A stretch of 64,000 nt of DNA, taken from the UHGV virus genome UHGV-0305822; one strand, 5' to 3'. The notes under the pieces are model-generated. The model searched no databases, was not told the DNA's origin, and saw nothing but the letters and a program-made list of their open reading frames with translations. Shown piece after piece: positions 2,820-61,610 of the stretch. The stretch is from a virus. The translations under genes and the position numbers were made by a program. The first letter of the stretch is position 1; each line of letters begins with the position of its first letter.

Positions 2820-3410
2820 ATGGCCGAACGTTGGACTAAAGAAGGTATTATTGCTTCGAAAACAGATTTAGAAGGTGGGTACGTGAACGACCCCGACGAT
2901 AAAGGTGGGGAAACCTGTCACGGCGTAACACTAACAACTGCACGCGAATACGGGTATAAAGGGAGAATGAAGGATCTGACCCGTGCGCAGGCGTTTGATA
3001 TTTACGATCGCGGTTGGTGGAAGAAACTTAAACTCGATGAGATTTTAGCTATTTCACCCTTACTCGCAGACCGGATGTTTGATTTTGCTATTAACTCTGG
3101 CCGCGTTAACTGTGTGAAATCGTTACAACGTATTCTGAACGTTTTAAATAACGAAGGGAAACTTTACGCAGATATTGACACCGACGGCGGTATGGGACCT
3201 AAAACGCTAGGTGCCCTGAATGCTTATCTGAATTACCGTAAAGACGAGGGGTTAGGCATCTTAATCTTTGCCTTAATCTCACACCAGGTAACTTACTACA
3301 CAGAAATCTCCGAAAAGCGTAAGAAGAATGAAAAATTCGCTTACGGTTGGTATGCACGTGTGTTCAGGGAAATGCCGGATTATGTAGTGAAGGCGGGGTT
3401 AGTAAAATGA
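2820..3410 (+). CDS. GH108-type lysozyme with putative peptidoglycan-binding domain (endolysin-like)
   Basis: Motif EGGYVNDPDDKGGETCHGVT matches the GH108 signature (EGGY.NDP.D.GG.T..G); C-terminal region resembles PG_binding_3-type domain; RBS AAAGAGGAG. Confidence 0.7.
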   Translation: MAERWTKEGIIASKTDLEGGYVNDPDDKGGETCHGVTLTTAREYGYKGRMKDLTRAQAFDIYDRGWWKKLKLDEILAISPLLADRMFDFAINSGRVNCVKSLQRILNVLNNEGKLYADIDTDGGMGPKTLGALNAYLNYRKDEGLGILIFALISHQVTYYTEISEKRKKNEKFAYGWYARVFREMPDYVVKAGLVK

Positions 3411-7305: not shown

Positions 7306-7853
7306 TCATCGTCTCCTTTAATCAACCCTAATTCGATTAACAGTTCAAAATCGATATGACGGAATCTTGTGTCGAAGTCCGATTCCCAATCGATACGGAT
7401 ACCCTGGCATTCTTCTGGCGTTAGCTCAGGAAAAATCACGCTATTAAATTTCTCCCGCTCATCGTAAAACCCATCAATCGGTGAGTTCGGGTTACGTGTT
7501 GCGAAGATAGTAATGCCGGGGAAGGACAATGCCAACACAGTGATAGATTCTGCGCTGGGTTCGCTTAAAGAGCGGCGTAGAAACGCAATTTTGTGACGTG
7601 GGAAATCCAATACCCGTTCTTCAAACCCTGGGTTACGTTTTTCAATTTCCGCAACCGACAGGTCAGTAAGTTCGGTGCAGTACATTGGGATGATTACAGT
7701 CACGCCGTGACGAATCAGTAAGCGTTTTACGTCATCGGTGAAATCTTCACCGTTAATCACCACATAACAACCGAATAGCTTACTGTTTTCCAGAAACTTA
7801 TCCAGAAGTCGAATTCTACGCTTCGTAATATTGTTGATCAGAATTGGTTTCAT
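7281..7853 (-). CDS. hypothetical protein (190 aa)
   Basis: Long ORF overlapping both neighbours (7281-7305 and 7816-7853) on same strand. Confidence 0.5.
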   Translation of the reverse strand: MKPILINNITKRRIRLLDKFLENSKLFGCYVVINGEDFTDDVKRLLIRHGVTVIIPMYCTELTDLSVAEIEKRNPGFEERVLDFPRHKIAFLRRSLSEPSAESITVLALSFPGITIFATRNPNSPIDGFYDEREKFNSVIFPELTPEECQGIRIDWESDFDTRFRHIDFELLIELGLIKGDDECLLLVKA

Positions 7854-9138
7854 CTTTGGCTTCTCTTAATAATTTTTCCTTTTGGGCACGTTCACGAACA
7901 CAGCGTGGGCAATAACACATGCTCGTGTCGTGGAACGCTTTTGCTGACGTCGTACCCATCTTCTGTTTCCAGTATTCCGCCACCATCAGTTTCGCTGTCG
8001 TCCAGCCACACTGACGTCGTTCAGCGTGATACGCCTTACGGTCTTCTAACGTCCCTTCCCCGTTCTCGTAAGAAGCCGCTGCGCAGCTACCACAAGCGTG
8101 TTTCATCGGACAACCTAAACAGGTCTCTGGGTAGTTGGTATATTGCGTTTGAATCTCTTCTAACAATTTACCGTTGTCCAGACTGACGAATTCCCGACCT
8201 ACCAACTCAAACACCGCAGAACGCGACGTTACCGTTGACATAAAGCGGTTACAGCCAAAGATCTTACGGTCAAATCCTAAGCACGTCATGTGCGTTAACG
8301 TCCCACAAAACGGACGTAAACGTTCTGGGTTCAGCCGTACGGTGTCATTATACAGTAACTGGTCACGCCAGTTCGGTTCCCAAATCGTATCGAAATCCAA
8401 CCCTTCTGGAATGATGTGCGATAAGATATTACGTGGGTTGGTGTGTAATCCTTTCTCAACCCAGTAATCTATCACATCCATCATCTGTAACGCGATTGAC
8501 GTCGCCATGCTACGTGGCATAACGTCTTCGAAAGTTACGTTTCCAGAAATTGTCCCACCGCCAGTAATGTCAATTAATGACTTCATCCCCGCAGCATAGA
8601 ACGGCAGCGTTTCTAACGTAAAGGTTGCTTTTACGCCGAGCTCTGCAATGCCAACCTCTTTTAAGTAGTTATAGCCACGTACTGCGGCTTCGTAAGAACC
8701 CTGGCGTGTTGTTGTGAAGATACGATAACGGTCATGGGATTCAGGTAAGCCATCAATCGAAACCCCAACCGAAAGTTTATCTTTCCAACGTTCTACAATC
8801 TCACGGTTCAACGGACGATCTAACAGCGTTCCGTTCGTGGAGATACTAAACATAAACGGTCGGTTGTGTTCTTTACACAACTGCTCAGCGGTTTCAAACG
8901 CAGCCAGCAGCAGTTTAGGCTGCATGAACGGCTCACCACCGATAATGTCGATAATAACTTCAACATTCGGTTCGTTTTTATCACGTTCAAAACAGGCGTG
9001 TAAGAAATCAACAATATCCGCCGCTTTGTTGTTACGCGGGTACTTACGTTCGTAACAATATTCGCAGTCCAAGTTACACGAAAGGTTGGTTACGATCTGA
9101 TACGTTAACTGCTTAGGGAATTCATTTACTTGACTCAT
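7816..9138 (-). CDS. radical SAM enzyme with SPASM-type C-terminal Cys cluster (peptide/protein-modifying maturase candidate)
   Basis: N-terminal CNLDCEYC (Cx3Cx2C radical SAM 4Fe-4S motif); GGEPF SAM-binding-like motif; C-terminal FCG...C...C and CLGCPMKHACGSC clusters typical of SPASM auxiliary Fe-S domains. Confidence 0.8.
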   Translation of the reverse strand: MSQVNEFPKQLTYQIVTNLSCNLDCEYCYERKYPRNNKAADIVDFLHACFERDKNEPNVEVIIDIIGGEPFMQPKLLLAAFETAEQLCKEHNRPFMFSISTNGTLLDRPLNREIVERWKDKLSVGVSIDGLPESHDRYRIFTTTRQGSYEAAVRGYNYLKEVGIAELGVKATFTLETLPFYAAGMKSLIDITGGGTISGNVTFEDVMPRSMATSIALQMMDVIDYWVEKGLHTNPRNILSHIIPEGLDFDTIWEPNWRDQLLYNDTVRLNPERLRPFCGTLTHMTCLGFDRKIFGCNRFMSTVTSRSAVFELVGREFVSLDNGKLLEEIQTQYTNYPETCLGCPMKHACGSCAAASYENGEGTLEDRKAYHAERRQCGWTTAKLMVAEYWKQKMGTTSAKAFHDTSMCYCPRCVRERAQKEKLLREAKDETNSDQQYYEA

Positions 9139-10045
9139 TTGCCGCCCCTCTATTACGCCCTGCCATCACTACGCGACGAATATATTCGTACGCCTCTACA
9201 CCGATAGAGAAGGCCAGTTGGTTACATCCCGATTCCAGAACGTTAGGTGCATTCTGGAGTTGGTGCTCACCACCGTCTGCATTAATCCAAAGACTTTCGC
9301 TGCAAACGTTACACCCTTCTTCAAACACTTTACTTACTGTAAAGCCGCATTCACGACCATTTACTACATTCAGTCGTTCAATGTTATCCTGAACCTGATA
9401 GTAGCCGTAAATAAAGTTCATGACGTGGTCAGGCGATAAAGGTTTTGGCATTTTCGCATCTAAGAGTAACGTCATTGCACGGAAACCGTAATGGTAAATC
9501 GCGCTGTGCAGCTGAATAATATCTTCGTGCCAGCGTTTGTCCCCTAAACGGTCCCGTGTCAGGACACCCCAAGTCTGGACATTATCCAGCTCGTAGATCG
9601 TTTCCAGTGCTTCGTAACAGCCTTCGTCAATAAAGCGCATAAACGGGCGCTCAGACGACTTAAACCCATCGATGCTAACGTAGACATTGTCAAACTGTTT
9701 TAGCAACGGGAGATGCGATTTACGCATCTTTAAGCCATTGGTATACAACTGGTGTTTGAGTTCTGGACGAATCACTTTTAATTCGTCAACAAACGCCTCA
9801 ATTTTACGGGTTGCCAGTAATGGCTCACCACCCGTCCACTGAATTTCGGTAATGGTTGGATTAGCTTCCAGCGCTTCCAAAATTCGCTCACGTTGAAACT
9901 CTCGCGGAGAATCTTCACGATTCATGTAATAGGCTCCACCGCAGAAGCTACAATCCAGGTTGCACTTGGACGTAGCGACTACGGACAATACGGTGGGTTT
10001 ATCGTATAAACGATTCGATAACCTTGGTTCTGCATTGGTTGTCAT
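9122..10045 (-). CDS. radical SAM enzyme (second, shorter; partial auxiliary Cys cluster)
   Basis: CNLDCSFCGG (Cx3Cx2C); GGEPLL motif; C-terminal ECGF...CNVCSE Cys cluster; overlaps downstream rSAM start by 17 nt. Confidence 0.75.
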   Translation of the reverse strand: MTTNAEPRLSNRLYDKPTVLSVVATSKCNLDCSFCGGAYYMNREDSPREFQRERILEALEANPTITEIQWTGGEPLLATRKIEAFVDELKVIRPELKHQLYTNGLKMRKSHLPLLKQFDNVYVSIDGFKSSERPFMRFIDEGCYEALETIYELDNVQTWGVLTRDRLGDKRWHEDIIQLHSAIYHYGFRAMTLLLDAKMPKPLSPDHVMNFIYGYYQVQDNIERLNVVNGRECGFTVSKVFEEGCNVCSESLWINADGGEHQLQNAPNVLESGCNQLAFSIGVEAYEYIRRVVMAGRNRGAANESSK

Positions 10046-27309: not shown

Positions 27310-28572
27310 GTGACTACTGCTTATCAAGTGCGGCCCGACAGCGCTTTTGGCTTCTCTCGAGAGTCCCGTACCTGGGGAGCCATCGATGTCACGCAACCCT
27401 TAAATACGTTGTGTTCAGACTACCACACCTTTGAGATCGGTTTAAGTGCACTTGGTAAAGACTATACGTTAGTCAGCCAATACCATCTTGCCGAACTACA
27501 AAACCGAACAGACACTTTACAAGATTGGTTAAATGAAAAAGCCGGAAACGTCATCCCTACTCTAAAAGCCGGATTGCCGAAACTCGAATTCAGTTGGGCA
27601 CATTACCAATCGATTAATGCCGACGTACCCGTTGAAACGTACCTGTGTCCGCCTGGGTACCACCACAGTCAAGATTTCAGCTTAGACGATGCTGATGACG
27701 TTGTCATCGTTTGTGAGGACAAGTGGAAGGACAAATACCGTAATAGTGTACTGTACAACATTAACGGTCAATGGGTACCGCACCAGACAGATACCGTAGG
27801 TGTCCGATTACCCGGGGCCGGTAAAATCGTACGGAGAGCCTGTACGCCAGATATCGGCTGTATGGTTTTTGGTCAGTTAGGGAATGTTAAAACTTACCCC
27901 ATTGCCAACCTTACCCTAAACAAGCTCGACACTACACGTGACTATTACTCCACGCTAATGATTTCGCTGCCCGAATCTATTACGGGAAAAACGGTGGGTT
28001 TCGTCATCGGTGGACTGTTACGTTGGTTGCCTCCGGGCGGTTATTTCTCCGACCGTGCGATCATGATTTCTTTGCCGAATTTTGATCTTGCTCGGACCGT
28101 TCTGGAAACCCGTCGCTATTACGACTGGGACGCCATCGGTGTGGGTGATTTATCAACGCCTACTAATGTCCAACGTATTCGCAACCCCGAAACATTAAAG
28201 GCGCTTTTACTCCACGAGTCTTCGTTTATCTTTACGGTAGATAATCCGTATTTAGAAGAAGAGGTTGTGGGTGTATCGCATAACGCAGTTTGGGGACGTT
28301 GTTATCTCAAGGACCCTAGCGATCCTGATTCTGAAAAACCATTAGGGTACTTAAATAATCGCTTCGGAAAGACCGTGGGCTATTGGCCTACATGGGAGGA
28401 GGGTGAGTGGGTATTTAACACCACCGAATTCGACAGTCAAAACTACGTCTTTCGTGAAGCCCGGTGGTATAATCAGAAGAAGATTAACGACGCGCAAGCA
28501 ATCGTCGGTCCATTCGGTCCCTGGGAAAAAGTGTATTTAGAAATGCATCGCTTTAGAGCACGAAAAAAATAA
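27310..28572 (+). CDS. hypothetical protein (420 aa), divergent from fibre operon
   Basis: GTG start with GAGGAAAAGAG RBS; 68-nt divergent intergenic region; no motif recognised. Confidence 0.5.
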   Translation: MTTAYQVRPDSAFGFSRESRTWGAIDVTQPLNTLCSDYHTFEIGLSALGKDYTLVSQYHLAELQNRTDTLQDWLNEKAGNVIPTLKAGLPKLEFSWAHYQSINADVPVETYLCPPGYHHSQDFSLDDADDVVIVCEDKWKDKYRNSVLYNINGQWVPHQTDTVGVRLPGAGKIVRRACTPDIGCMVFGQLGNVKTYPIANLTLNKLDTTRDYYSTLMISLPESITGKTVGFVIGGLLRWLPPGGYFSDRAIMISLPNFDLARTVLETRRYYDWDAIGVGDLSTPTNVQRIRNPETLKALLLHESSFIFTVDNPYLEEEVVGVSHNAVWGRCYLKDPSDPDSEKPLGYLNNRFGKTVGYWPTWEEGEWVFNTTEFDSQNYVFREARWYNQKKINDAQAIVGPFGPWEKVYLEMHRFRARKK

Positions 28573-28578
28573 AGTAAC

Positions 28579-28621
28579 CTCCTACCCTCTAAGAGGGTAG
28601 GAGTAGCACGTTTTTTTTTTC
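28579..28621. terminator. bidirectional terminator
   Basis: A-run, stem CCTACCC / GGGTAGG, then TTTTTTTTTT; between genes ending 28572 (+) and 28624 (-). Confidence 0.65.
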
Positions 28622-28623
28622 GC

Positions 28624-28830
28624 TTAGTCTTTTTTGTAGACAATTGCGTTACCGTGCAGTTTGTTGTTGCCGGAAATACCGATAACTTTGAATGCGTCGC
28701 CGCCAATTTTTTCAGCTTCAGCAGCCAGCTTACCCGTTACATGATCAACGGTGTCGCCGAAAGCGCTAACGTTACCGATTTTCTTAAACTCTTCTGGAAT
28801 ATGCTCAGCAGAAGAGAACTCTTTAATAGA
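28624..28830 (-). CDS. DUF1471 (BhsA/YdgH/McbA-like) domain protein without signal peptide
   Basis: C-terminal GGDAFKVIGISGNNKLHGNAIVYKK resembles the DUF1471 consensus (GA..Y.I.S.SG.N...GTA..YK); ATG at 28830 after GGAGAG RBS (ORF track start 28851). Confidence 0.45.
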   Translation of the reverse strand, partial: SIKEFSSAEHIPEEFKKIGNVSAFGDTVDHVTGKLAAEAEKIGGDAFKVIGISGNNKLHGNAIVYKKD

Positions 28831-30005: not shown

Positions 30006-30325
30006 CGGGACGTTCCTTAGATCGGAATTGATTTCAGATATATTTTACTTAAGTGAATAGGGACTGAACTGGTACTTCAGTCCCTACGGACACGTTACCC
30101 TTTTAGTACCTTTCGTTAAAGGTTACTAAAAATTACATTATGTCCCTTTATTCTGCTACTCGGGATACCGGTAGGGGGTAGGGGGCATTATGTATACGGA
30201 TATAAATAGCGGAGGTATACGGAGTATACCGACATACTCTTCCCAGAGGAACGTAGTGACTTCCTTATACCTCTTTTACAATCCATAATAATAGCCTTCC
30301 CTTCATTGGGATTAGCGAGTAAATC

Positions 30326-34265: not shown

Positions 34266-34298
34266 GGTGGGGGTAAACCCCCCACCTTTTATTTTTTT
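34266..34298 (+). terminator. rho-independent terminator
   Basis: Stem GGTGGGGG / CCCCCACC, loop TAAA, then TTTTATTTTTTTG. Confidence 0.65.
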
Positions 34299-34391
34299 GT
34301 TCGTTAATATTAAAAATAATTTCAGATATATATTACCTAGGTGAGAGTACAAAAGCTCTCACTTAATAAAACCATTTTAGGAGTATTAAAG

Positions 34392-34763
34392 ATGAAAAAC
34401 GAATTATTTAAAGACCCGTTTGTTGTATTAATGATCGTTACTCGCGCTGCCACTAACCCAGAAAACCTGAAACGTTTACTTACTAACGAAGCATACCTTA
34501 TCGAACAGCGTGACGCGCAGTTAGCCAAACCGCACGCTGAAGGCCAGGCGAAAGACCTTATCTCTATTTTCCGTAACGAAGAATGGCGTAAAAACAACGA
34601 GCTGTCCGACAACTTGACGGTTGCAATTGCAAAACTCTTGACACTGTTCAATCTTGACAAAGACATTAACCAAAGCCTTTCTACAGAAGAGCGTCTGGAA
34701 ATGATAAGAGGTATCGGAGATAGTTATACACAGATTAAAGCATTACCCAACACAGTTATTTAA
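34392..34763 (+). CDS. hypothetical protein (123 aa)
   Basis: ATG at 34392 preceded by TTTTAGGAGTATTAAAG (ORF track start 34341 is upstream non-ATG). Confidence 0.5.
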   Translation: MKNELFKDPFVVLMIVTRAATNPENLKRLLTNEAYLIEQRDAQLAKPHAEGQAKDLISIFRNEEWRKNNELSDNLTVAIAKLLTLFNLDKDINQSLSTEERLEMIRGIGDSYTQIKALPNTVI

Positions 34764-34809
34764 TTTCATAATTTGTGGGAATTTCCCCATAACCCGAAGG
34801 AGCATTTCA

Positions 34810-35271
34810 ATGAAAACCTTTATCACATTCTTAATAACCATTTTAACTTTCGGCCTCAATAGCGCACACGCCGCTATCAACAGCTGGGAACAAATACAAA
34901 ACCCTGGCCAGGCAGTTTACGAAATTGAAGACACCGCCGGAAACGGACTGTCTATCAACTGTGACACAGAAACTGCGAATCGCAAATTTTACGGTCGCAT
35001 GGTTTGGTATTACGGTGAACCCGTAGGTGCAACTAACGCTGAAGATAACACGATGGATATTGTCGTAAACGGCAAAACCTATAACATCCCTACCGTGGAC
35101 GGTAGTGACAAAGCAGAACACGCTTGGGTTGCTTTCGTTAATGCTATCGGTAATGCCAAAACTTTCAGTGTGAGTATCAATGGTAACGATGCCGCTAACT
35201 TTACCGTAGAAGGCGAACGTCTGTCTGAAACTTTCTTCCAAAACTGTGGACACACCCGTCCTAACAAATAA
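34810..35271 (+). CDS. secreted protein (signal peptide), 153 aa
   Basis: N-terminal MKTFITFLITILTFGLNSAHA signal-like sequence; RBS GAAGGAG. Confidence 0.55.
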   Translation: MKTFITFLITILTFGLNSAHAAINSWEQIQNPGQAVYEIEDTAGNGLSINCDTETANRKFYGRMVWYYGEPVGATNAEDNTMDIVVNGKTYNIPTVDGSDKAEHAWVAFVNAIGNAKTFSVSINGNDAANFTVEGERLSETFFQNCGHTRPNK

Positions 35272-35293
35272 TTATTAGTCTTTTTTAGAGTGC

Positions 35294-35686
35294 GTGAAAA
35301 TGAATATCAGAACTATACTTTATACCATCATTATTTTCTGTGCGGTCGGAATTACTGGCACTTATGCTTTCGGTGATTCGGATGTCCGCTATTACGAACC
35401 GGCTCCTGACTCACCGATTATCAACCCGGATGAGACGCCTACGTTAATGCGCAGTTTCGGTAAACTACAAGTTTATCGTTTAGTGCGTGGTGAAACGTGT
35501 ACGGGATTACTCATTGCTGACACCCGTGCACAAGTCTACCAACGTCTGACGGATATCGCCTGCGAACAACCAAAGGTAATGTCGGTTAGCATCCATCCGC
35601 TATCAGTTGGTAACTATACCGCTGTGGACTTCTTTCACAACGCCGAATTAATCGGACGCGTTACCTTAAATCGTCCTGCCGAATAA
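35294..35686 (+). CDS. secreted/membrane-anchored protein, 130 aa
   Basis: Hydrophobic N-terminus ILYTIIIFCAVGITGTYA; start may be ATG at 35300. Confidence 0.5.
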   Translation: MKMNIRTILYTIIIFCAVGITGTYAFGDSDVRYYEPAPDSPIINPDETPTLMRSFGKLQVYRLVRGETCTGLLIADTRAQVYQRLTDIACEQPKVMSVSIHPLSVGNYTAVDFFHNAELIGRVTLNRPAE

Positions 35687-35704
35687 TCTAAAGGAGTAGT
35701 TACA

Positions 35705-36190
35705 ATGAAACGTTTACACACTCTGATGTTCTTTCTGGTTTTCTTGTTTATCGGTGTCACACCAAGTGTAGATGCGGCCTCCGTAGACGAATTGCTTACC
35801 TGTGATGGAAACGCTTGGGAAGGTCAGCCAAATGCGTGCCCAAACATCAACGACTTGTACGATACCGATAAGTCGTTTAAAGCCGTTGTTGATAAAACAT
35901 TAGACCCTGTGGGACTGGATGGTATGTTCGGCTCTAAAGGTTACATGGATGGCCCTGGCGGTAACATGTATCCGGTAAACATCAACAACAAAATCTGGAT
36001 TGAAAGTGGCGGTTGTAAAGCTAACGCTTGTGGTTGGGAATACATCGTAACGCTATACAACCCACACACCAAGAAACTCGTCGGTTATTACTACAACATC
36101 GACCCCGGTTATCTGATCTGGTTCGGTGATATCGGTGTTGCCGAATTCGCTTACCTGGTTAAGAAATACGTAGAACAATCTAAATACTAA
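35705..36190 (+). CDS. secreted Ivy-like protein (inhibitor-of-vertebrate-lysozyme fold candidate)
   Basis: Signal peptide MKRLHTLMFFLVFLFIGVTPSVDA; segment ESGGCKANACGWEYIVTLY...YYNIDPG parallels the Ivy CKPHDC loop region (SACKPHDCGSQRIAVMW...FSTIDEK) recalled from E. coli Ivy, but with N in place of the key His. Confidence 0.4.
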   Translation: MKRLHTLMFFLVFLFIGVTPSVDAASVDELLTCDGNAWEGQPNACPNINDLYDTDKSFKAVVDKTLDPVGLDGMFGSKGYMDGPGGNMYPVNINNKIWIESGGCKANACGWEYIVTLYNPHTKKLVGYYYNIDPGYLIWFGDIGVAEFAYLVKKYVEQSKY

Positions 36191-36201
36191 GGACTTTTAT
36201 C

Positions 36202-36612
36202 ATGAAAACTATCATCAATACTCTTCTCATTGCAATGGCTGTTCTGTTCTCTGTCAACGCTACAGCAAAAACAATACAGTTGCCAGACAATATTAAGTAC
36301 GTCAATAGCACCGATGATTTCTATTGTACGGAAATTGACGGCTTGTACTGCCAGGCGAAGAGTCTGTTTAAATACAAAGGTAGCAGATACGTATTCATCG
36401 TTGAGCAGGGTGGTGCCTGGTGTTACGACAGCCCAATGTCCGTACTCAACCTCGAAACGTGGAAGGCCCAACGTCTCGAATACAACGACAAACGTCTGTG
36501 CTCTGGTAATAACAAACCATTCTTCGAAGTCGTAGATGGTGTGCCAATGGTAGGGATATTAGACACTTCGGAAAAACCTATCGTTGTAGCTATGGATAAA
36601 CTTAAAATTTAA
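36202..36612 (+). CDS. secreted protein (signal peptide), 136 aa, 4 Cys
   Basis: MKTIINTLLIAMAVLFSVNATA signal-like N-terminus. Confidence 0.55.
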   Translation: MKTIINTLLIAMAVLFSVNATAKTIQLPDNIKYVNSTDDFYCTEIDGLYCQAKSLFKYKGSRYVFIVEQGGAWCYDSPMSVLNLETWKAQRLEYNDKRLCSGNNKPFFEVVDGVPMVGILDTSEKPIVVAMDKLKI

Positions 36613-36622
36613 GGAGTAACTC

Positions 36623-37012
36623 ATGCGTCTCGTCTGCGTTTTAGCATTCTTCTTCTCCCTGAGTGTAGCAGCATCTACTCAAGTTAACGATTTACTGCTA
36701 ACCCCAAACAACAATACCGATTACCAGTACAATCCTCCGGGGTTTGAAGTTTGTGAAGTCGGTGAAACAATCTGCCAAGAAGTCGGCGCAGACGGGCGCT
36801 ATATTCTGGTAAAAGCTGATGGTGGCACAATGTGTCCCGCAGGTTATTACTTTCTGCTCGATTCCGTCGCAAGAGAGGTTCTTCCTATCACCACGAAAAC
36901 GTGCGACCCTACCGTTGTCTTAACTCTCGCTAAAAGCAAATCTCGCGACCGTTACCTGATCGTTATCGAAGAACGGGGCAAGATGGCTGGTGCTATCGAA
37001 TTAGATCATTGA
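36623..37012 (+). CDS. secreted protein (signal peptide), 129 aa, 4 Cys
   Basis: MRLVCVLAFFFSLSVAAS signal-like N-terminus; RBS AAGGAG. Confidence 0.55.
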   Translation: MRLVCVLAFFFSLSVAASTQVNDLLLTPNNNTDYQYNPPGFEVCEVGETICQEVGADGRYILVKADGGTMCPAGYYFLLDSVAREVLPITTKTCDPTVVLTLAKSKSRDRYLIVIEERGKMAGAIELDH

Positions 37013-37021
37013 GTGTAGTCT

Positions 37022-37050
37022 TGGCCCCGATACGTTCGGGGTCCTTTTTA
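37022..37050 (+). terminator. rho-independent terminator
   Basis: Stem GGCCCCGA / TCGGGGTCC followed by TTTTT. Confidence 0.6.
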
Positions 37051-38220: not shown

Positions 38221-38225
38221 CGTTT

Positions 38226-38268
38226 GGGAGAACCTTCGGGTTCTCCCTTTCTTTATTTTTTTCTTTTT
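38226..38268 (+). terminator. rho-independent terminator
   Basis: Stem GGGAGAACC / GGTTCTCCC, loop TTCG, then long T-rich tract. Confidence 0.65.
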
Positions 38269-38298
38269 ACACCACACTCCGTCTTTATGGAGGTGGGT

Positions 38299-40803
38299 AT
38301 GCTAAAAGTTGAACGCATTATACTCAAAGGTTTTACGGGGATGGGGTTACATGAAATTGAAACCTTCGATTTCACTATCCAGTCTCCAACAACAATTATC
38401 CTGGGTGGGAACGGCTGCGGGAAAACCAGTCTACTGTCTGTGTTCTTACCCTTAGCACCGGCTAAAACCGAATTTAGGGACGGCGGTTCTTACACAAACT
38501 ACTGTTTAGTTGGCGATCAACGCTATCGATTCAAAGTTGCCCGTAAAGGCAACTCTTTGGTTTGTGATATTGAGAACTTGACCACGGGGACAAAGATCGT
38601 CGAGCAAGGTAATGCGAAAGTCTACAACTCCCGTGTTGAAGAAATCACGGGTATTACGAAAGAGATTAAAGAACTATTAAATGGTGAGGTGTTGTTAACC
38701 GATGCGGGAACCGAATTACGCCGCAAATGGTTTTACCGTTTAAGTACCTCTGACCTCACTTACGCGTTAGGGTTTTATCAGCGTTTACGTAAAAACCTTA
38801 CTGCCTTAAATGGGGGTATTGAAATCACCAGCCGCAAGATCGCCGAATTACGGACGCGTGTTATTGAGAACGAGGAAGAACGGCAGCAGTTAGCGACGAG
38901 ATTAAAAGGTTTGGAATCGGATTTACGTGAACTGAACCGAGAAATCGAACAGTTGCCAGGATTAAATCGTGCCGTCACCATCGAAACAATCCAAGCGTTA
39001 TTAAACAGCTTGGGCCCAACCATCGACGCAATATTACAACATCGTGGTGGCCTGCCTACTGATGAACAGATACTGACCGCGCGACAAAACGAAGCTACGG
39101 CCCGCGAAGCTGTCGTGTCTACTGAAACAGAGGTATCGATGTTGAATAAAGACTTGTCGTTATTAATGGATGAGTCGACACGACAAGACTACCTGATGCG
39201 GAATCACGAAGGTCTCAAGAATACGCTGGCACGTTTACGTGAGTTACTTACCAAATGGGACACCGAACATCTCTTTCCGGGTCTATTTAACGACAACATC
39301 AATTTAGACCAACTTCGTGCGGCTACAGATGCGCGTGTTTGGGGGCAACGGTTGGGAACAACACTAGACGCAATTCATTCAACCGAAAAACTTAACGTTT
39401 TGGAAGAACGACTTCTGGTGATGGATCAAAAAACCGCAGGGATGCGGGATAGACTCCAGCGAGTGGAGAACGTTTTACAGAATTTAAATCACGAACGTAA
39501 TCACTACTTAGAAACAGCGGAAGTGGATTGCCCGCAGTGTCGGTTTAAGTTTCGGCCCGGTGTTACGCGTTCTTTACCTGAACTTGAGTCTTCGATTCGC
39601 GGACAACAACAGCAGCGCACGGAACTGCAAACACAGTTAGAGGCCCTATTACGCGATCGTGTTGAATTAGAATCTGATGTAACTTATATGCGGCAGGTTC
39701 GTGAGATTGTACTGACGTATTCAAAGGACCCGGTATTGAGCATGTTCTTTAAGCGTTTGCAAGAACGTAACGTTTTCACAGAATCACGCGAACAGTTCGG
39801 GAGTCTATGCGCAGCGTTTGACAGTGAGTTGTACTCTGCTATTGAGTACCATGAAACCCGACAACGGTTAGTGAAGGCGGAAAAAGAATGGCAGGATGCC
39901 GTAGCGGCCGTTGGTAACGTCGATGGTGCTTTACAACAGAAAATCGCCTTCCAACAGTCACGATTAGGTAAAGCCACAGAAATGCTCTCAATGCGTCGTA
40001 GAGAGCACGAACTGGCTAACACGACACTTACCTATCTGGTGAATGTTAAACGTGCTGTAGATGATTTCAGTGCGTTATTCGAACGGTTAGAGAGTGATGT
40101 TAAGGTTACGTTGACAAATACGGTCGTCGAGGAACTCTTACGTGCACGAGAAGGGAAGCTGGATGCTTTTACAACCGCACGCGAACGTTATCGTCAGATG
40201 GAAAATGAATTGAATCAGCTCAACAGTTTGGAACGCGAACTTGCTGACTTACAAGCCCAGCAGTTCAATAACAAACTGATGATTCAAGCCTTCTCGCCAG
40301 AAAAGGGTGTACTTAGAAAGTATTTTTACAACGCTATCGTTAGAATCACAGAGTTAATGACGCGTTATATCGAACAAGTCTGGACGTACCCCATGCGCGT
40401 TATGCCTTGTGACCTCACTGACGGCGATTTGGATTATACTTTTCCTGTCCAGCTAAAAACGCATCCTGAGCCTGTTCCTGACGTGCGTAAAGGGTCTAAG
40501 GCGCAGCGTGCGATATTTAATCTGATGTTCAGGCTGACCGCGTACAAAGCGCTGAAGTTGCATCAGTTTCCGTTGCTTTTGGATGAGCCTTCGGAAGGCA
40601 TGGATGAGGAGCACCGTAACAACCTGGTCGGCTTTATTAAAACGTTAGCAAACTCGGGAGAATTTTCTCAACTGTTGGTAGTCTCCCACGAAGCCGAGGT
40701 TCATTCTAAACTTAATGAAGCATCGTACTGTGTCATCGAACCGGAAGGGGTGACATTGCCTGCGGTGTATAACGAAGGAGTAAAAATTGTTTATGCAAAC
40801 TGA
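38299..40803 (+). CDS. Rad50/SbcC-like ABC-type ATPase with zinc hook
   Basis: Walker A GGNGCGKTS near N-terminus; long coiled-coil-like middle with central CPQC (zinc-hook-like); C-terminal LLLDEPSEGMD Walker B/D-loop; ATG at 38299 after GGAGGTGGG (ORF track start 38224). Confidence 0.7.
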   Translation: MLKVERIILKGFTGMGLHEIETFDFTIQSPTTIILGGNGCGKTSLLSVFLPLAPAKTEFRDGGSYTNYCLVGDQRYRFKVARKGNSLVCDIENLTTGTKIVEQGNAKVYNSRVEEITGITKEIKELLNGEVLLTDAGTELRRKWFYRLSTSDLTYALGFYQRLRKNLTALNGGIEITSRKIAELRTRVIENEEERQQLATRLKGLESDLRELNREIEQLPGLNRAVTIETIQALLNSLGPTIDAILQHRGGLPTDEQILTARQNEATAREAVVSTETEVSMLNKDLSLLMDESTRQDYLMRNHEGLKNTLARLRELLTKWDTEHLFPGLFNDNINLDQLRAATDARVWGQRLGTTLDAIHSTEKLNVLEERLLVMDQKTAGMRDRLQRVENVLQNLNHERNHYLETAEVDCPQCRFKFRPGVTRSLPELESSIRGQQQQRTELQTQLEALLRDRVELESDVTYMRQVREIVLTYSKDPVLSMFFKRLQERNVFTESREQFGSLCAAFDSELYSAIEYHETRQRLVKAEKEWQDAVAAVGNVDGALQQKIAFQQSRLGKATEMLSMRRREHELANTTLTYLVNVKRAVDDFSALFERLESDVKVTLTNTVVEELLRAREGKLDAFTTARERYRQMENELNQLNSLERELADLQAQQFNNKLMIQAFSPEKGVLRKYFYNAIVRITELMTRYIEQVWTYPMRVMPCDLTDGDLDYTFPVQLKTHPEPVPDVRKGSKAQRAIFNLMFRLTAYKALKLHQFPLLLDEPSEGMDEEHRNNLVGFIKTLANSGEFSQLLVVSHEAEVHSKLNEASYCVIEPEGVTLPAVYNEGVKIVYAN

Positions 40804-41267: not shown

Positions 41268-41298
41268 TTTTACTTTTTTGCGTCTCTAAGGTTTGCAA

Positions 41299-41742
41299 AT
41301 GGAAATTTATTTGTTGAACGCATCTTCTAAAGTCGGTGAACGACAAGCTGCCGATTTACTCAAACTACACTACCGTTACTTGGACCACCAGGCTACATTA
41401 CTGAAAATCAAAACGTCGGTGCCGAAGTTAAATGCGCGACAGCTGATCGAAGGTAACTGCATAGTTCTGGTGTATCAGGATGATGTCGCGGTAGGATACT
41501 GTAGTTATCGGAATCGTAACGGTTCACTTAAGATACGTTCGGTATACGTGCTCCCAGACTATCGTCAACGGGGTGTAATGAAAGAGATTTTCAAAGCAAT
41601 TGCAGCTGATGAAGTTTTCGGCGAGATTGTTACTGGCATGTATGCGAAATGTAAAGAAGCAAAAGAGTATTTCATCCGACGCGGCTATCAAGCGGTTTAC
41701 TCACACGATCGTGAGTGGGTCGATTTTAGCAAAACATTCTAA
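41299..41742 (+). CDS. GNAT-family N-acetyltransferase candidate
   Basis: VYVLPDYRQRGVMKEIF resembles the GNAT acetyl-CoA-binding motif A region; ATG at 41299 (ORF track start 41293 is TTG). Confidence 0.4.
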   Translation: MEIYLLNASSKVGERQAADLLKLHYRYLDHQATLLKIKTSVPKLNARQLIEGNCIVLVYQDDVAVGYCSYRNRNGSLKIRSVYVLPDYRQRGVMKEIFKAIAADEVFGEIVTGMYAKCKEAKEYFIRRGYQAVYSHDREWVDFSKTF

Positions 41743-42379: not shown

Positions 42380-42466
42380 TGGGTAAAACATATATCGCTA
42401 TACTTGTCGAGCTATCAATCGGCGGTACACGTTTTAATACTACACATCAACTCCGGGCGTTTCGTT

Positions 42467-42964
42467 ATGTTAACGGTACGTAAAGAATCTGAAATTGGTA
42501 ACGATCTTTTTAATGCGCCCGAAGACTATAAAGTCGTTACCATTAACTGCGTAGGAGCGATGGGTCGCGGTATTGCACTCGCGTGTCGTGAACGCTACCC
42601 CAACCTTTATCAGGATTATCGTAAGCGGTGTCGTGAAGACGAAATTAAGATTGGAAGCGTTTACGTTTACTCTGACGAAAAGTGTATCTTGCTCCCCACG
42701 AAAACACATTGGCGTTTAAAATCCCAGGTTTCTTATGTTACTGCGGGCATTACCGCATTAGCAGACTGTGTTGAGGATCTGGATACCAGCGTTGCTATCC
42801 CTCCGTTGGGAATGGCAAATGGGTGGTTAGATTCCTGGGAAAGACAAGAAATCTTTTTGTGGCTTTACAAAAAACTTGAACCGAGGAGGCAGCGCTACAC
42901 GTTATACTTACCTGATAAGCTGTACCAAGAAGCAGAGTCATTAATTCCAAACTCTTTTAAATAG
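42467..42964 (+). CDS. TARG1/DarG-like macrodomain protein (ADP-ribose hydrolase candidate)
   Basis: NCVGAMGRGIALACRERYP parallels TARG1 DCRMGAGIAVLFKKKFG; later AIPPLGMANGWLDSWERQ parallels SMPRIGCGLDRLQWENV (comparison from memory); ATG at 42467 (ORF track start 42404 is TTG). Confidence 0.6.
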   Translation: MLTVRKESEIGNDLFNAPEDYKVVTINCVGAMGRGIALACRERYPNLYQDYRKRCREDEIKIGSVYVYSDEKCILLPTKTHWRLKSQVSYVTAGITALADCVEDLDTSVAIPPLGMANGWLDSWERQEIFLWLYKKLEPRRQRYTLYLPDKLYQEAESLIPNSFK

Positions 42965-43064
42965 ATATTATCATTAGGGCACACAACAAAGGAGTATTAG
43001 CTGTCCGCGCCGTCATTTCGTCTTACGGAATACGGAAATGTATAAATCCAACTGGAGAAACAAA

Positions 43065-43763
43065 ATGTTTCGTATCTTCTTTCTTTTACTGGTAACACTT
43101 TTCGCGTTTAACGCACAGGCGTCAACGTCAACGCCACATTCTAAGCATCAGCGTGAGTTTGCACAAATCCAACATCGGTTCGAAAAAGTCAGCCCGTTAA
43201 TTGTGGAAATCTCACGAAAGCAGGGCGTTGATCCCAAGCTGATGATTACGCTGATTTATCGTGAATCGCGTTTTGATCCCAAGGCTTACAACAAAAGCTC
43301 ACGAGCGCACAGCCTGGTACAAATGCTTCCAAGTACCAAGCGTAATCTGCTAAAGCTTTATGGAAAAGAATTAGGTCTTAGTCAGAACGCCGATTTGTAT
43401 AATCCGCGTAACGCTGTTTTGCTGGCTACCGCGTATGTTAAACATCTTGAGAAGGGGTTAACCAAACGACTCAAACGCAAGCCCACCATGGCTGAAATTG
43501 CGTTAGCTTACCACTGGGGTGAAAGTGGCGCTCACACGCGAATCAAAAGCAAATCTCGAGCAGCACAACGAGAAATGGCAGGCTTTATGAAAGACGCCGC
43601 GTTCTATAGCGCGAAAATCGATGTGCCTGTTGTTGTGGGCTCGGCCCCACGTCAGCTTGCGTTTGCGAAGAAAACACCACGTCAGATTCAACTGGCGGAA
43701 GTTAGTAGAATTTGGGATACGATAAACATGAGTTTTCCAATCAATAGAGGAGTTACCCTTTGA
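43065..43763 (+). CDS. secreted lytic transglycosylase (SLT domain) candidate
   Basis: Signal peptide MFRIFFLLLVTLFAFNAQA; YRESRFDPKAYNKSSRAHSLVQMLPST resembles the SLT catalytic ES ... G(L)MQ(L/I)(M)P motif; ATG at 43065 after GGAGAA. Confidence 0.55.
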   Translation: MFRIFFLLLVTLFAFNAQASTSTPHSKHQREFAQIQHRFEKVSPLIVEISRKQGVDPKLMITLIYRESRFDPKAYNKSSRAHSLVQMLPSTKRNLLKLYGKELGLSQNADLYNPRNAVLLATAYVKHLEKGLTKRLKRKPTMAEIALAYHWGESGAHTRIKSKSRAAQREMAGFMKDAAFYSAKIDVPVVVGSAPRQLAFAKKTPRQIQLAEVSRIWDTINMSFPINRGVTL

Positions 43764-51795: not shown

Positions 51796-52457
51796 TCGTT
51801 TATAGTGAGGTCTTGTCAAAAGCCCCTCGGTTTTTACAAACTCACTTTATGTATAACGCACGGCAGTATTGGGGCTTTAAAGCCCCTTACTCCGAAGATT
51901 GGGAAGTTGTGGAAAAGTTAGCATTTGTGTTTTCTCTTTCGTTGTTGTGGGAGATCATTGCACTATACAACGCAGGTTGTGATATCCCGGAGAACGGCTT
52001 TTTCCAACAACACCTATTCCAAAAATTCACAGCATCGGTAGAAAATCATGAAGTGCGCAAGGAGTGTATCGGCTACGCCGAGCATTCTGAAGAATTGAGA
52101 AAGATTTCCAAATTAGTTATCACGCGGACATGGGCTGAATTCGAAACTTACCCCGAAAAAATAATTTGGTTTAATCGTGAACAGTTTATTAAAGAGGCAG
52201 TCAGTCAACATCCCGTTCGATTAATCGTGTTAAAGCCGTCCGATCTCGCCTTACGCCACACCTATTCGTCTCCAGAGGAAATCGTTTTTTCCTCTGGAAC
52301 AACAGATTATGGTATTTTTAAACAAGGAGATTCTTGGATTCTTCCACACGATTTAGACGGGTATTTGCTCAGTAGCGATCAAATACATTCGGGTTATGAC
52401 TCACAGGTGAAGGAGTTTACAGTCGATCCTTTTTTCGCTAAAAATATTCTTAGATAG
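51789..52457 (+). CDS. hypothetical protein (222 aa)
   Basis: ATG overlapping upstream stop. Confidence 0.5.
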   Translation: MLIVYSEVLSKAPRFLQTHFMYNARQYWGFKAPYSEDWEVVEKLAFVFSLSLLWEIIALYNAGCDIPENGFFQQHLFQKFTASVENHEVRKECIGYAEHSEELRKISKLVITRTWAEFETYPEKIIWFNREQFIKEAVSQHPVRLIVLKPSDLALRHTYSSPEEIVFSSGTTDYGIFKQGDSWILPHDLDGYLLSSDQIHSGYDSQVKEFTVDPFFAKNILR

Positions 52458-52493
52458 ATATTATCCAGGTGTAACACCATTGGAGTTATTAAA

Positions 52494-61539: not shown

Positions 61540-61610
61540 TCTTACTACCTCAATTTCAAAAAGAAGTCAGACAGATATTATCTACGTGAGACATTCTTTA
61601 GGAGTGAATT

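Follow-up and report, generated by a model that had tools for sequence, protein, structure and literature searches.

A secreted, highly diverged Ivy-superfamily protein in a jumbo phage and in Escherichia coli islands, possibly an inhibitor of the peptidoglycan-cutting enzymes of other phages

Introduction

Ivy is a chromosomally encoded inhibitor of animal lysozyme whose physiological role is still under debate. The virus genome UHGV-0305822, analysed here as one stretch of 64,000 nucleotides (the window), carries a gene for a small protein that resembles Ivy together with genes for lysozyme-type enzymes, which raises the question of what purpose such a protein would serve in a phage. An initial annotation of this DNA had proposed that the Ivy-like protein either modulates the phage's own peptidoglycan enzymes or has diverged to a new target. 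The second option is favoured by the results described below. The best overall explanation, to which a probability of about 0.4 is assigned, is that the protein is a secreted, highly diverged member of the Ivy superfamily that inhibits lysozyme-fold glycosidases and thereby excludes other phages.

The Ivy-like gene and its product

The Ivy-like open reading frame (ORF) runs from an ATG to a TAA codon and encodes 161 residues, according to both the ORF list and the sequence (Table 1). Residues 1 to 24, MKRLHTLMFFLVFLFIGVTPSVDA, display the charged n-region, the hydrophobic h-region and the V-x-A cleavage site of a Sec-type signal peptide. This assignment, which agrees with the initial annotation, was read from the sequence; residues 1-25 were of low confidence in both structural models described below. 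The segment that had been likened to Ivy, ESGGCKANACGWEYIVTLYNPHTKKLVGYYYNIDPG, corresponds to residues 100-135. Compared with the allele of a related phage, the gene has a ratio of nonsynonymous to synonymous substitution rates (dN/dS) of 0.18, which fits a functional gene maintained under purifying selection.

Relation to the Ivy superfamily

Direct searches placed the protein outside the boundary of the curated Ivy family. The Pfam Ivy profile (PF08816) had no match to it even at E ≤ 10, phmmer found no match in the Protein Data Bank (PDB), and the NCBIfam Ivy model NF007443 gave 18.6 bits (E = 0.0013), below its curated cut-off of 180. The closest E. coli homologues also remained below the Pfam Ivy threshold, with 14-17 bits against 21. 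In a pairwise BLASTP comparison with an E. coli Ivy sequence that is 99% identical to database Ivy proteins, 52 residues were aligned at E = 2e-5.

A relation to Ivy emerged when profiles were used. A profile of the Ivy-like protein and its seven closest full-length homologues (8 sequences) ranked Ivy second and third among 177,635 PDB sequences, at an E-value of only 0.76; the mannanase that ranked above Ivy in this search was rejected as a spurious match. Against 1.8 billion representative sequences the same profile retrieved 53 proteins, and in the full-length distant members of the family the corresponding loop follows the pattern C-[EQK]-x-H-[NAD]-C. Pfam Ivy matched 28 of the 31 aligned family members, exceeding its 21-bit threshold in P0177 (22 bits), P0187 (31), P0182 (36), P0192 (38) and P0212 (44). 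The search with the Ivy-family hidden Markov model that the initial annotation had suggested therefore gave a family link that is transitive and at profile level, but no direct Pfam match.

When family profiles were compared with one built from 15 aligned canonical Ivy proteins, hhalign gave a probability of 93.2% for the narrow family and of 99.0% (E = 6e-18) for the wider family. Both hhalign alignments placed the loop CKANAC exactly on the CKPHDC loop of Ivy, and hmmsearch aligned them likewise, column for column. The parallel between this segment and the disulfide-loop region of E. coli Ivy was thus borne out, including the replacement of the inhibitory His by an Asn, which is residue 107. 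The Ivy motifs CKPHDC, IAVMW and FSTIDEK, quoted in the initial annotation, were correct when aligned to PDB entries 1GPQ and 1XS0.

The predicted structure led to the same family. A first AlphaFold2 model, obtained from the 8-sequence alignment, had a predicted local distance difference test (pLDDT) score of 65, and its eight best PDB matches in Foldseek were Ivy chains. It was replaced by a second model based on 26 sequences (pLDDT 85.3; predicted template modelling score 0.76), in which strands flank the loop between C104 and C109. The top eight PDB matches of this second model were all Ivy chains, with template modelling scores of 0.60-0.68 and a probability of 1.00, and the next match followed at a probability of only 0.18. 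The protein is accordingly modelled with the predicted Ivy fold, an antiparallel sheet flanked by helices. Because of the transitive profile links, the 99% hhalign probability and the exclusive Ivy fold matches, the Ivy-like protein is almost certainly a true remote homologue within the Ivy superfamily. A link to Ivy and a predicted Ivy-type fold, on which the initial annotation had made its proposal depend, were both found.

The disulfide loop and other departures from canonical Ivy

The disulfide-loop region is the most conserved part of the family. Its two cysteines, C104 and C109, occur without exception in 31 family members and, judged from the sequence, probably form a disulfide that closes the loop. 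A second pair, C33 and C45, is retained by 90% or more of the family and may form a second disulfide. In the clade made up of the phage and E. coli-island proteins the loop reads CK[AS][NHD][AT]C, so that its flanks are invariant and its inner residues vary. In Ivy, the His at the fourth position contacts the active site of lysozyme. Among 17 cluster representatives of the clade this position is occupied by Asn in 13, His in three and Asp in one, and among 26 distant relatives it is His in 22. Some E. coli alleles retain the His (CKAHAC), and a CKANTC loop is found in the island clusters P0011, P0012 and P0015. The Pro and the Asp of CKPHDC are also missing from the Ivy-like loop. At the other end of the protein, a C-terminal segment (LSIDGKTVLFAAL...NHPD.FN) is invariant in the 15 canonical Ivy proteins; the model of the Ivy-like protein ends instead in an amphipathic helix (residues 145-159).

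Fused architectures were observed among the distant relatives. In P0212 a Pfam Ivy-type region is joined to a C-terminal caspase (Peptidase_C14) domain, and P0173, P0175 and P0216 combine an Ivy-type region with a common Cys-rich C-terminal domain of about 150 residues. These fusions suggest that Ivy-like modules serve beyond simple lysozyme inhibition.

Homologues in E. coli islands

Chromosomal homologues of E. coli (clusters P0002-P0015) are 59-67% identical to the phage protein, and a megablast search with one E. coli allele found it in 138 of 5,426 complete genomes. These homologues always lie in CP4-like islands, flanked on one side by a dynamin GTPase/YjcZ/patatin module and on the other by genes for DUF932, antirestriction, RadC and CbeA/CbtA proteins; toxin-antitoxin genes are among their neighbours. 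In many islands a gene for a 136-residue protein follows immediately, as it does in the phage; in an E. coli O121 strain its product is 80% identical to that of the phage. Together, the Ivy-like and 136-residue genes of the islands show 64-80% identity to the phage cassette. The commonest island type has, directly 5' of the Ivy-like gene, a 54-codon remnant of the 130-residue gene that stands upstream in the phage, and the commonest E. coli allele (P0002 type) is without the 136-residue partner. Since the 130-, 136- and 129-residue families are native to SPN3US-like phages, transfer of the cassette from phage to island would be the simplest reading of these sequences. Loci with pieces of the cassette in the phage gene order are listed in Table 1.

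The operon of exported proteins

In the phage, the Ivy-like gene is the fourth of an operon of six genes, which encode, in order, a 129-residue protein without an evident signal peptide, a YfjT-like protein of 153 residues, a 130-residue protein, the Ivy-like protein and proteins of 136 and 129 residues. Signal peptides are present in five of the six products. Of the 24 fetched loci with a full-length Ivy-like gene, 19 have the pair formed by this gene and the 136-residue gene, and the two are neighbours in four lineages of phage and in the majority of the island loci that were examined.

Three of the neighbours, assigned to phrog_9424, phrog_8968 and phrog_5248, are small, secreted, Cys-containing proteins that cross-match each other's PHROG profiles and had no Pfam or PADLOC match. 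From their sequences they seem to be paralogues of one family that is native to SPN3US-like jumbo phages. The secreted 153-residue product is a YfjT-family protein (the precomputed annotation of the close relative gives PF27224), and one relative, L001, has two copies of this gene (L001 8598-9551). YfjT is known as a gene of the E. coli CP4-57 island, and the YfjT-like product may be another periplasmic protein common to phage and islands.

The phage and its relatives

A virion protein of the phage is 83% and 78% identical to proteins of Erwinia phage phiEaH2 and Salmonella phage SPN3US, respectively, and other structural and replication genes match PHROGs. Judged from these genes, it is an SPN3US/phiEaH2-like jumbo phage; its hosts are E. 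coli, Shigella and Salmonella. Near-identical Ivy-like proteins are encoded by contigs of 223-227 kilobases (kb) in many Salmonella and Shigella isolate assemblies, by IMG/VR contigs of 220-225 kb and by a 64-kb metagenome scaffold. A related phage with 80% nucleotide identity (NZ_CP173450.1, L010; circular, 221,873 bp) appears among the database entries as a "plasmid" from a urinary E. coli isolate. The recurrence in isolate assemblies and this plasmid deposit suggest a carrier state, pseudolysogeny or contamination of cultures by such phages. A tblastn search with the Ivy-like protein gave no match in 50,697 GenBank phage records, and the BFVD viral fold library contained no fold match for it. 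A candidate for a hidden Ivy homologue in the syntenic slot of Seoulvirus pEa_SNUABM_29 was rejected; this secreted protein of 165 residues resembles the neighbouring paralogue family instead.

Of all products of the cassette, the Ivy-like protein differs most between two phage lineages, with 64% identity against 76-96% for the others. Because the synonymous divergence (dS) is saturated from the Ivy-like gene onward and dN/dS is 0.18, this divergence marks the boundary of a recombination mosaic under purifying selection. On these grounds positive selection on the Ivy-like gene, of which no sign was detectable, was rejected.

Proposed function and mechanism

By analogy with Ivy, the odds are slightly better than even that the Ivy-like protein is an inhibitor of peptidoglycan glycosidases in the periplasm. 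That its targets would be the enzymes of incoming phages is put forward more tentatively, by the same analogy and with a chance closer to one in three than to one in two. The Ivy loop is essential for inhibition (PMC4262234), and inhibitors of the Ivy type act through a hairpin loop inserted into the active site (PMC7677548). The phage T4 protein Spackle (gp61.3) is an exported phage protein that inhibits the tail lysozyme of superinfecting phage (PMC7677548).

On these models, the protein would be exported by the Sec system and take up the predicted Ivy alpha/beta fold, in which the putative C104-C109 disulfide would produce a rigid loop of six residues. This loop would enter and block the active-site cleft of a peptidoglycan glycosidase with a lysozyme fold, as in Ivy, with Asn107 assuming the hydrogen-bonding role of the Ivy His and shifting the recognition of enzymes. 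In the periplasm, the most likely targets would be wall-cutting enzymes carried by the particles of other phages. The result would be superinfection exclusion and protection against lysis from without, as with T4 Spackle, and copies captured by islands would act as an anti-phage factor of the host.

Several features support exclusion of other phages. The Ivy-like gene is co-transcribed with genes of small exported proteins, not with lysis genes; its homologues stand in islands beside antirestriction, toxin-antitoxin and dynamin/YjcZ/patatin genes, which also speaks for a role in defence; and the interior of the loop varies while its flanks are invariant. Further support comes from a phenotype reported in a preprint. 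CRISPR interference (CRISPRi) knockdown of the E. coli O121 gene Hypo_04657 raised the efficiency of plating of phage T7 (PHAGEPACK preprint 2024, bioRxiv 10.1101/2024.04.20.590424). The product has an Ivy-like domain with a CKANTC loop, and inhibition of T7 lysozyme was proposed by the authors (bioRxiv 10.1101/2024.04.20.590424).

By analogy, the T7 virion protein gp16 would be a more plausible periplasmic target than T7 lysozyme. This preference is based on the location of the two proteins, because T7 lysozyme is a cytoplasmic amidase and gp16 has a transglycosylase motif of the SLT type that serves during entry. A broader proposal would regard these proteins as mobile periplasmic entry blockers: the jumbo phage would exclude rival and sister phages by neutralising peptidoglycan-cutting enzymes of their virions (for example SLT-type enzymes such as T7 gp16), E. 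coli islands would have taken over the phage cassette as an innate defence against phages, and the loop residue would set which enzyme is blocked. In this complete form the proposal is doubtful.

A number of points weigh against inhibition of the enzymes of other phages. The inhibitory His of CKPHDC is replaced by Asn107, and with it classical inhibition of C-type lysozymes may have been lost. The canonical C-terminal segment of Ivy has no counterpart in the Ivy-like protein, and the hhalign alignments stop before it. E. coli Ivy itself inhibits lytic transglycosylases only weakly in vitro (PMC10139938). Glycosidase inhibition by the Ivy-like protein is argued by analogy, and a virion-borne lysin is a candidate target. 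Hypo_04657 is a putative orthologue, linked to the island clusters by its CKANTC loop and its species only, and the T7 phenotype comes from a single CRISPRi knockdown, in which polar effects could be involved. In addition, dN/dS (0.18) gave no sign of positive selection, and no model of PADLOC-DB 2.0 matched the Ivy-like protein, its operon neighbours, or clusters P0002 and P0011.

Alternative explanations

The option in which the Ivy-like protein restrains an enzyme of its own phage to time lysis, in a pair like Brucella SagA/PhiA, is unlikely. The initial annotation was right that lysozyme-type enzymes are encoded in the window: both an SLT-family lytic transglycosylase and a GH108 endolysin with a PG_binding_3 domain are present, and the Ivy-like protein could act on the former, or on the latter once released. 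The SLT protein, annotated as a putative endolysin in relatives, begins with a strongly hydrophobic, cleavable-looking signal peptide, MFRIFFLLLVTLFAFNAQA. With such a peptide, a peptidoglycan-cleaving enzyme would be exported during infection without the help of a holin, and it would share its compartment with the Ivy-like protein. Inhibition of lytic transglycosylases by Ivy proteins in vitro, as cited from Clarke et al. 2010 in PMC10139938 and PMC3660660, would fit as well. However, the SLT protein is conserved in 138 related jumbo phages while the GenBank phage collection has no Ivy-like match, so that it works without an Ivy-like partner. The SLT and GH108 genes lie 7 kb and 32 kb from the Ivy-like gene, in other transcription units, the GH108 enzyme has no export signal, and E. 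coli islands hold the Ivy-like gene without any phage lysin.

Similarly improbable is a re-use of the Ivy scaffold for a periplasmic target other than a glycosidase (for instance a receptor, a porin or an envelope-stress sensor), perhaps in concert with the 136-residue protein. The loss of the key His and of the canonical C-terminus, the score below the Pfam threshold and the uncharacterised, exported operon neighbours would be expected in this case, and the adjoining of the Ivy-like and 136-residue genes across phage lineages and islands would fit a joint action. On the other side, it is precisely the disulfide loop, the part linked to inhibition, that is most conserved in the family, and the commonest E. 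coli allele dispenses with the 136-residue partner.

A classical Ivy role, in which the protein would shield the infected cell or the island-bearing bacterium from animal C-type lysozyme in the gut, is less probable still. Membership of the Ivy superfamily, the predicted periplasmic location, the E. coli alleles that keep CKAHAC and the enteric hosts, isolated from humans and animals, are all compatible with it. However, in the phage allele and most of the clade the His that contacts the lysozyme active site has given way to Asn, E. coli already has a chromosomal ivy gene, and a lytic jumbo phage would gain little from protection against vertebrate lysozyme within one infection cycle. Finally, a chance resemblance of an unrelated protein, which the empty Pfam and phmmer searches would allow, can hardly be entertained in view of the transitive profile links, the 99% hhalign probability and the exclusive Ivy fold matches.

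Other features of the window

The motif ATTTCAGATATATWTTACYTARGTGA, with two weaker copies, was found on the + strand (Table 1), just 5' of the ribosome-binding sites of genes on that strand. The copy at 34319 comes after a strong terminator. An element of about 60 bp that includes the motif matches intergenic DNA of SPN3US-like and Erwinia jumbo phages with about 85% identity, and the motif is probably a phage-specific class of promoter. A second sequence, TATATTAC, a phiKZ-type early promoter, has 2 sites in the window where 2.25 are expected; for lack of enrichment it was rejected as a marker, and no claim on the timing of expression is made.

Relatives of the phage encode a 69-residue DUF1471 protein similar to YdgH/BhsA (L001 2788-2997 and L010 3249-3458, both on the - strand); its gene would lie at about 28490-28700 of the window, by offset from L001. 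YdgH/BhsA-like DUF1471 proteins are an enterobacterial family of periplasmic stress proteins, and this is another host-like exported protein of these phages. Two adjacent radical-SAM proteins of 439 and 306 residues both belong to phrog_1802. A GNAT acetyltransferase gene lies close to a gene for a Macro-domain protein, both downstream of the gene for an SMC/AAA_15-like protein of 859 residues, and this group may have host-takeover or anti-defence functions.

Table 1. Positions of the Ivy-like gene and of other features in the window and in related loci
Feature	Position	Strand	Remarks
Ivy-like ORF	35705..36190	+	161 residues including signal peptide; mature part about residues 25-161
Shine-Dalgarno sequence AGGAG	35692..35696	+	9 nucleotides 5' of the Ivy-like ATG; read from sequence
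Sec-type signal peptide of the Ivy-like protein	35705..35776	+	residues 1-24; predicted cleavage after VDA
Cys-bracketed six-residue loop C104-K-A-N107-A-C109	36014..36031	+	tip of the beta2-beta3 hairpin in the model; counterpart of the Ivy inhibitory loop CKPHDC
Six-gene operon	34374..37012	+	gaps of 10-46 nucleotides; intrinsic terminators on both sides
Intrinsic terminator ending the upstream unit	34266..34286	+	promoter-like motif next, at 34319-34342
YfjT-like secreted protein	34810..35271		153 residues
Secreted protein, phrog_9424	35294..35686		
Secreted protein, phrog_8968	36202..36612	+	136 residues; directly downstream of the Ivy-like gene
Secreted protein, phrog_5248	36623..37012		
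Intrinsic terminator ending the operon	37023..37043	+	
SLT-family lytic transglycosylase	43038..43763	+	candidate target in cis; Pfam SLT E = 8.8e-15; own Sec signal peptide
GH108 + PG_binding_3 endolysin	2820..3410	+	candidate target in cis; no export signal
Cassette pieces in phage gene order, E. coli CP4-like island loci	L009 5806-6909; L004 9818-10483; L024 6001-7104		compared with window 34374-37012
Promoter-like motif	30031-30054; 34319-34342; 52447-52470; 61564-61587	+	with two weaker copies
Two radical-SAM proteins	7816-10045	-	both phrog_1802
SMC/AAA_15-like protein	38224-40803		859 residues
GNAT acetyltransferase	41293-41742		
Macro-domain protein	42404-42964		

Significance

Neither the Ivy fold nor the family is new, and a single preprint has drawn attention to the E. 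coli branch of the present subfamily. What is added here is a member carried by a phage, with its altered loop, the operon of exported proteins and the evidence for a cassette common to phage and islands. The presence of a diverged Ivy both in a lytic jumbo phage and in E. coli islands rich in defence genes suggests that conflicts among phages, and between phage and host, are a natural setting of the fold. If the proposed function is true, T4 Spackle would be joined by a lysin inhibitor of phage origin that works by another mechanism, the second such class. The known anti-phage defences would likewise gain a layer that acts in the periplasm, at the stage of entry, and a lysozyme-inhibitor fold of bacterial type would have been re-used as antiviral immunity. 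The natural N/H/D variation of the loop offers a simple handle on specificity, and the hypothesis is directly testable with one small soluble protein.

Comparison with known systems

The proposed functional model is T4 Spackle, which is likewise a small phage-encoded periplasmic protein that is exported by a signal peptide and contains disulfides (inferred in the case of the Ivy-like protein). In contrast to the Ivy-like protein, Spackle is a helical bundle that acts by an allosteric mechanism and not by loop insertion, and its function is proven, whereas that proposed here is inferred; no Spackle match was obtained for the Ivy-like protein in PHROGs, the PDB or BFVD. MliC/PliC, PliG, PliI and Brucella PhiA are periplasmic inhibitors that place a loop in the active site of a glycosidase, as is proposed for the Ivy-like protein. 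None of them gave a Pfam, PDB sequence or fold match to it; Ivy alone was matched.

Ivy (E. coli YkfE and Pseudomonas aeruginosa Ivyp1/Ivyp2; PF08816; PDB 1GPQ, 1XS0, 1UUZ and 4PS6) is thus the closest known family. Like Ivy, the phage protein is predicted to be exported by the Sec system to the periplasm and to have an alpha/beta fold, with about 135 mature residues and a Cys-x4-Cys loop on the equivalent hairpin followed by Gly. It differs from Ivy in sequence (about 17-19% identity), in the loop (CKANAC instead of CKPHDC), in the extra pair C33 and C45, and in genetic location, ivy being a core gene regulated by Rcs while the Ivy-like gene is found on a jumbo phage and on mobile islands. 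The E. coli island homologues are often annotated with an N-terminal extension of 65 residues, and some keep the His, in which they differ from the phage protein. They belong, however, to the same subfamily, share the CK[AS][NHD][AT]C-GW loop, and often have the 136-residue gene downstream.

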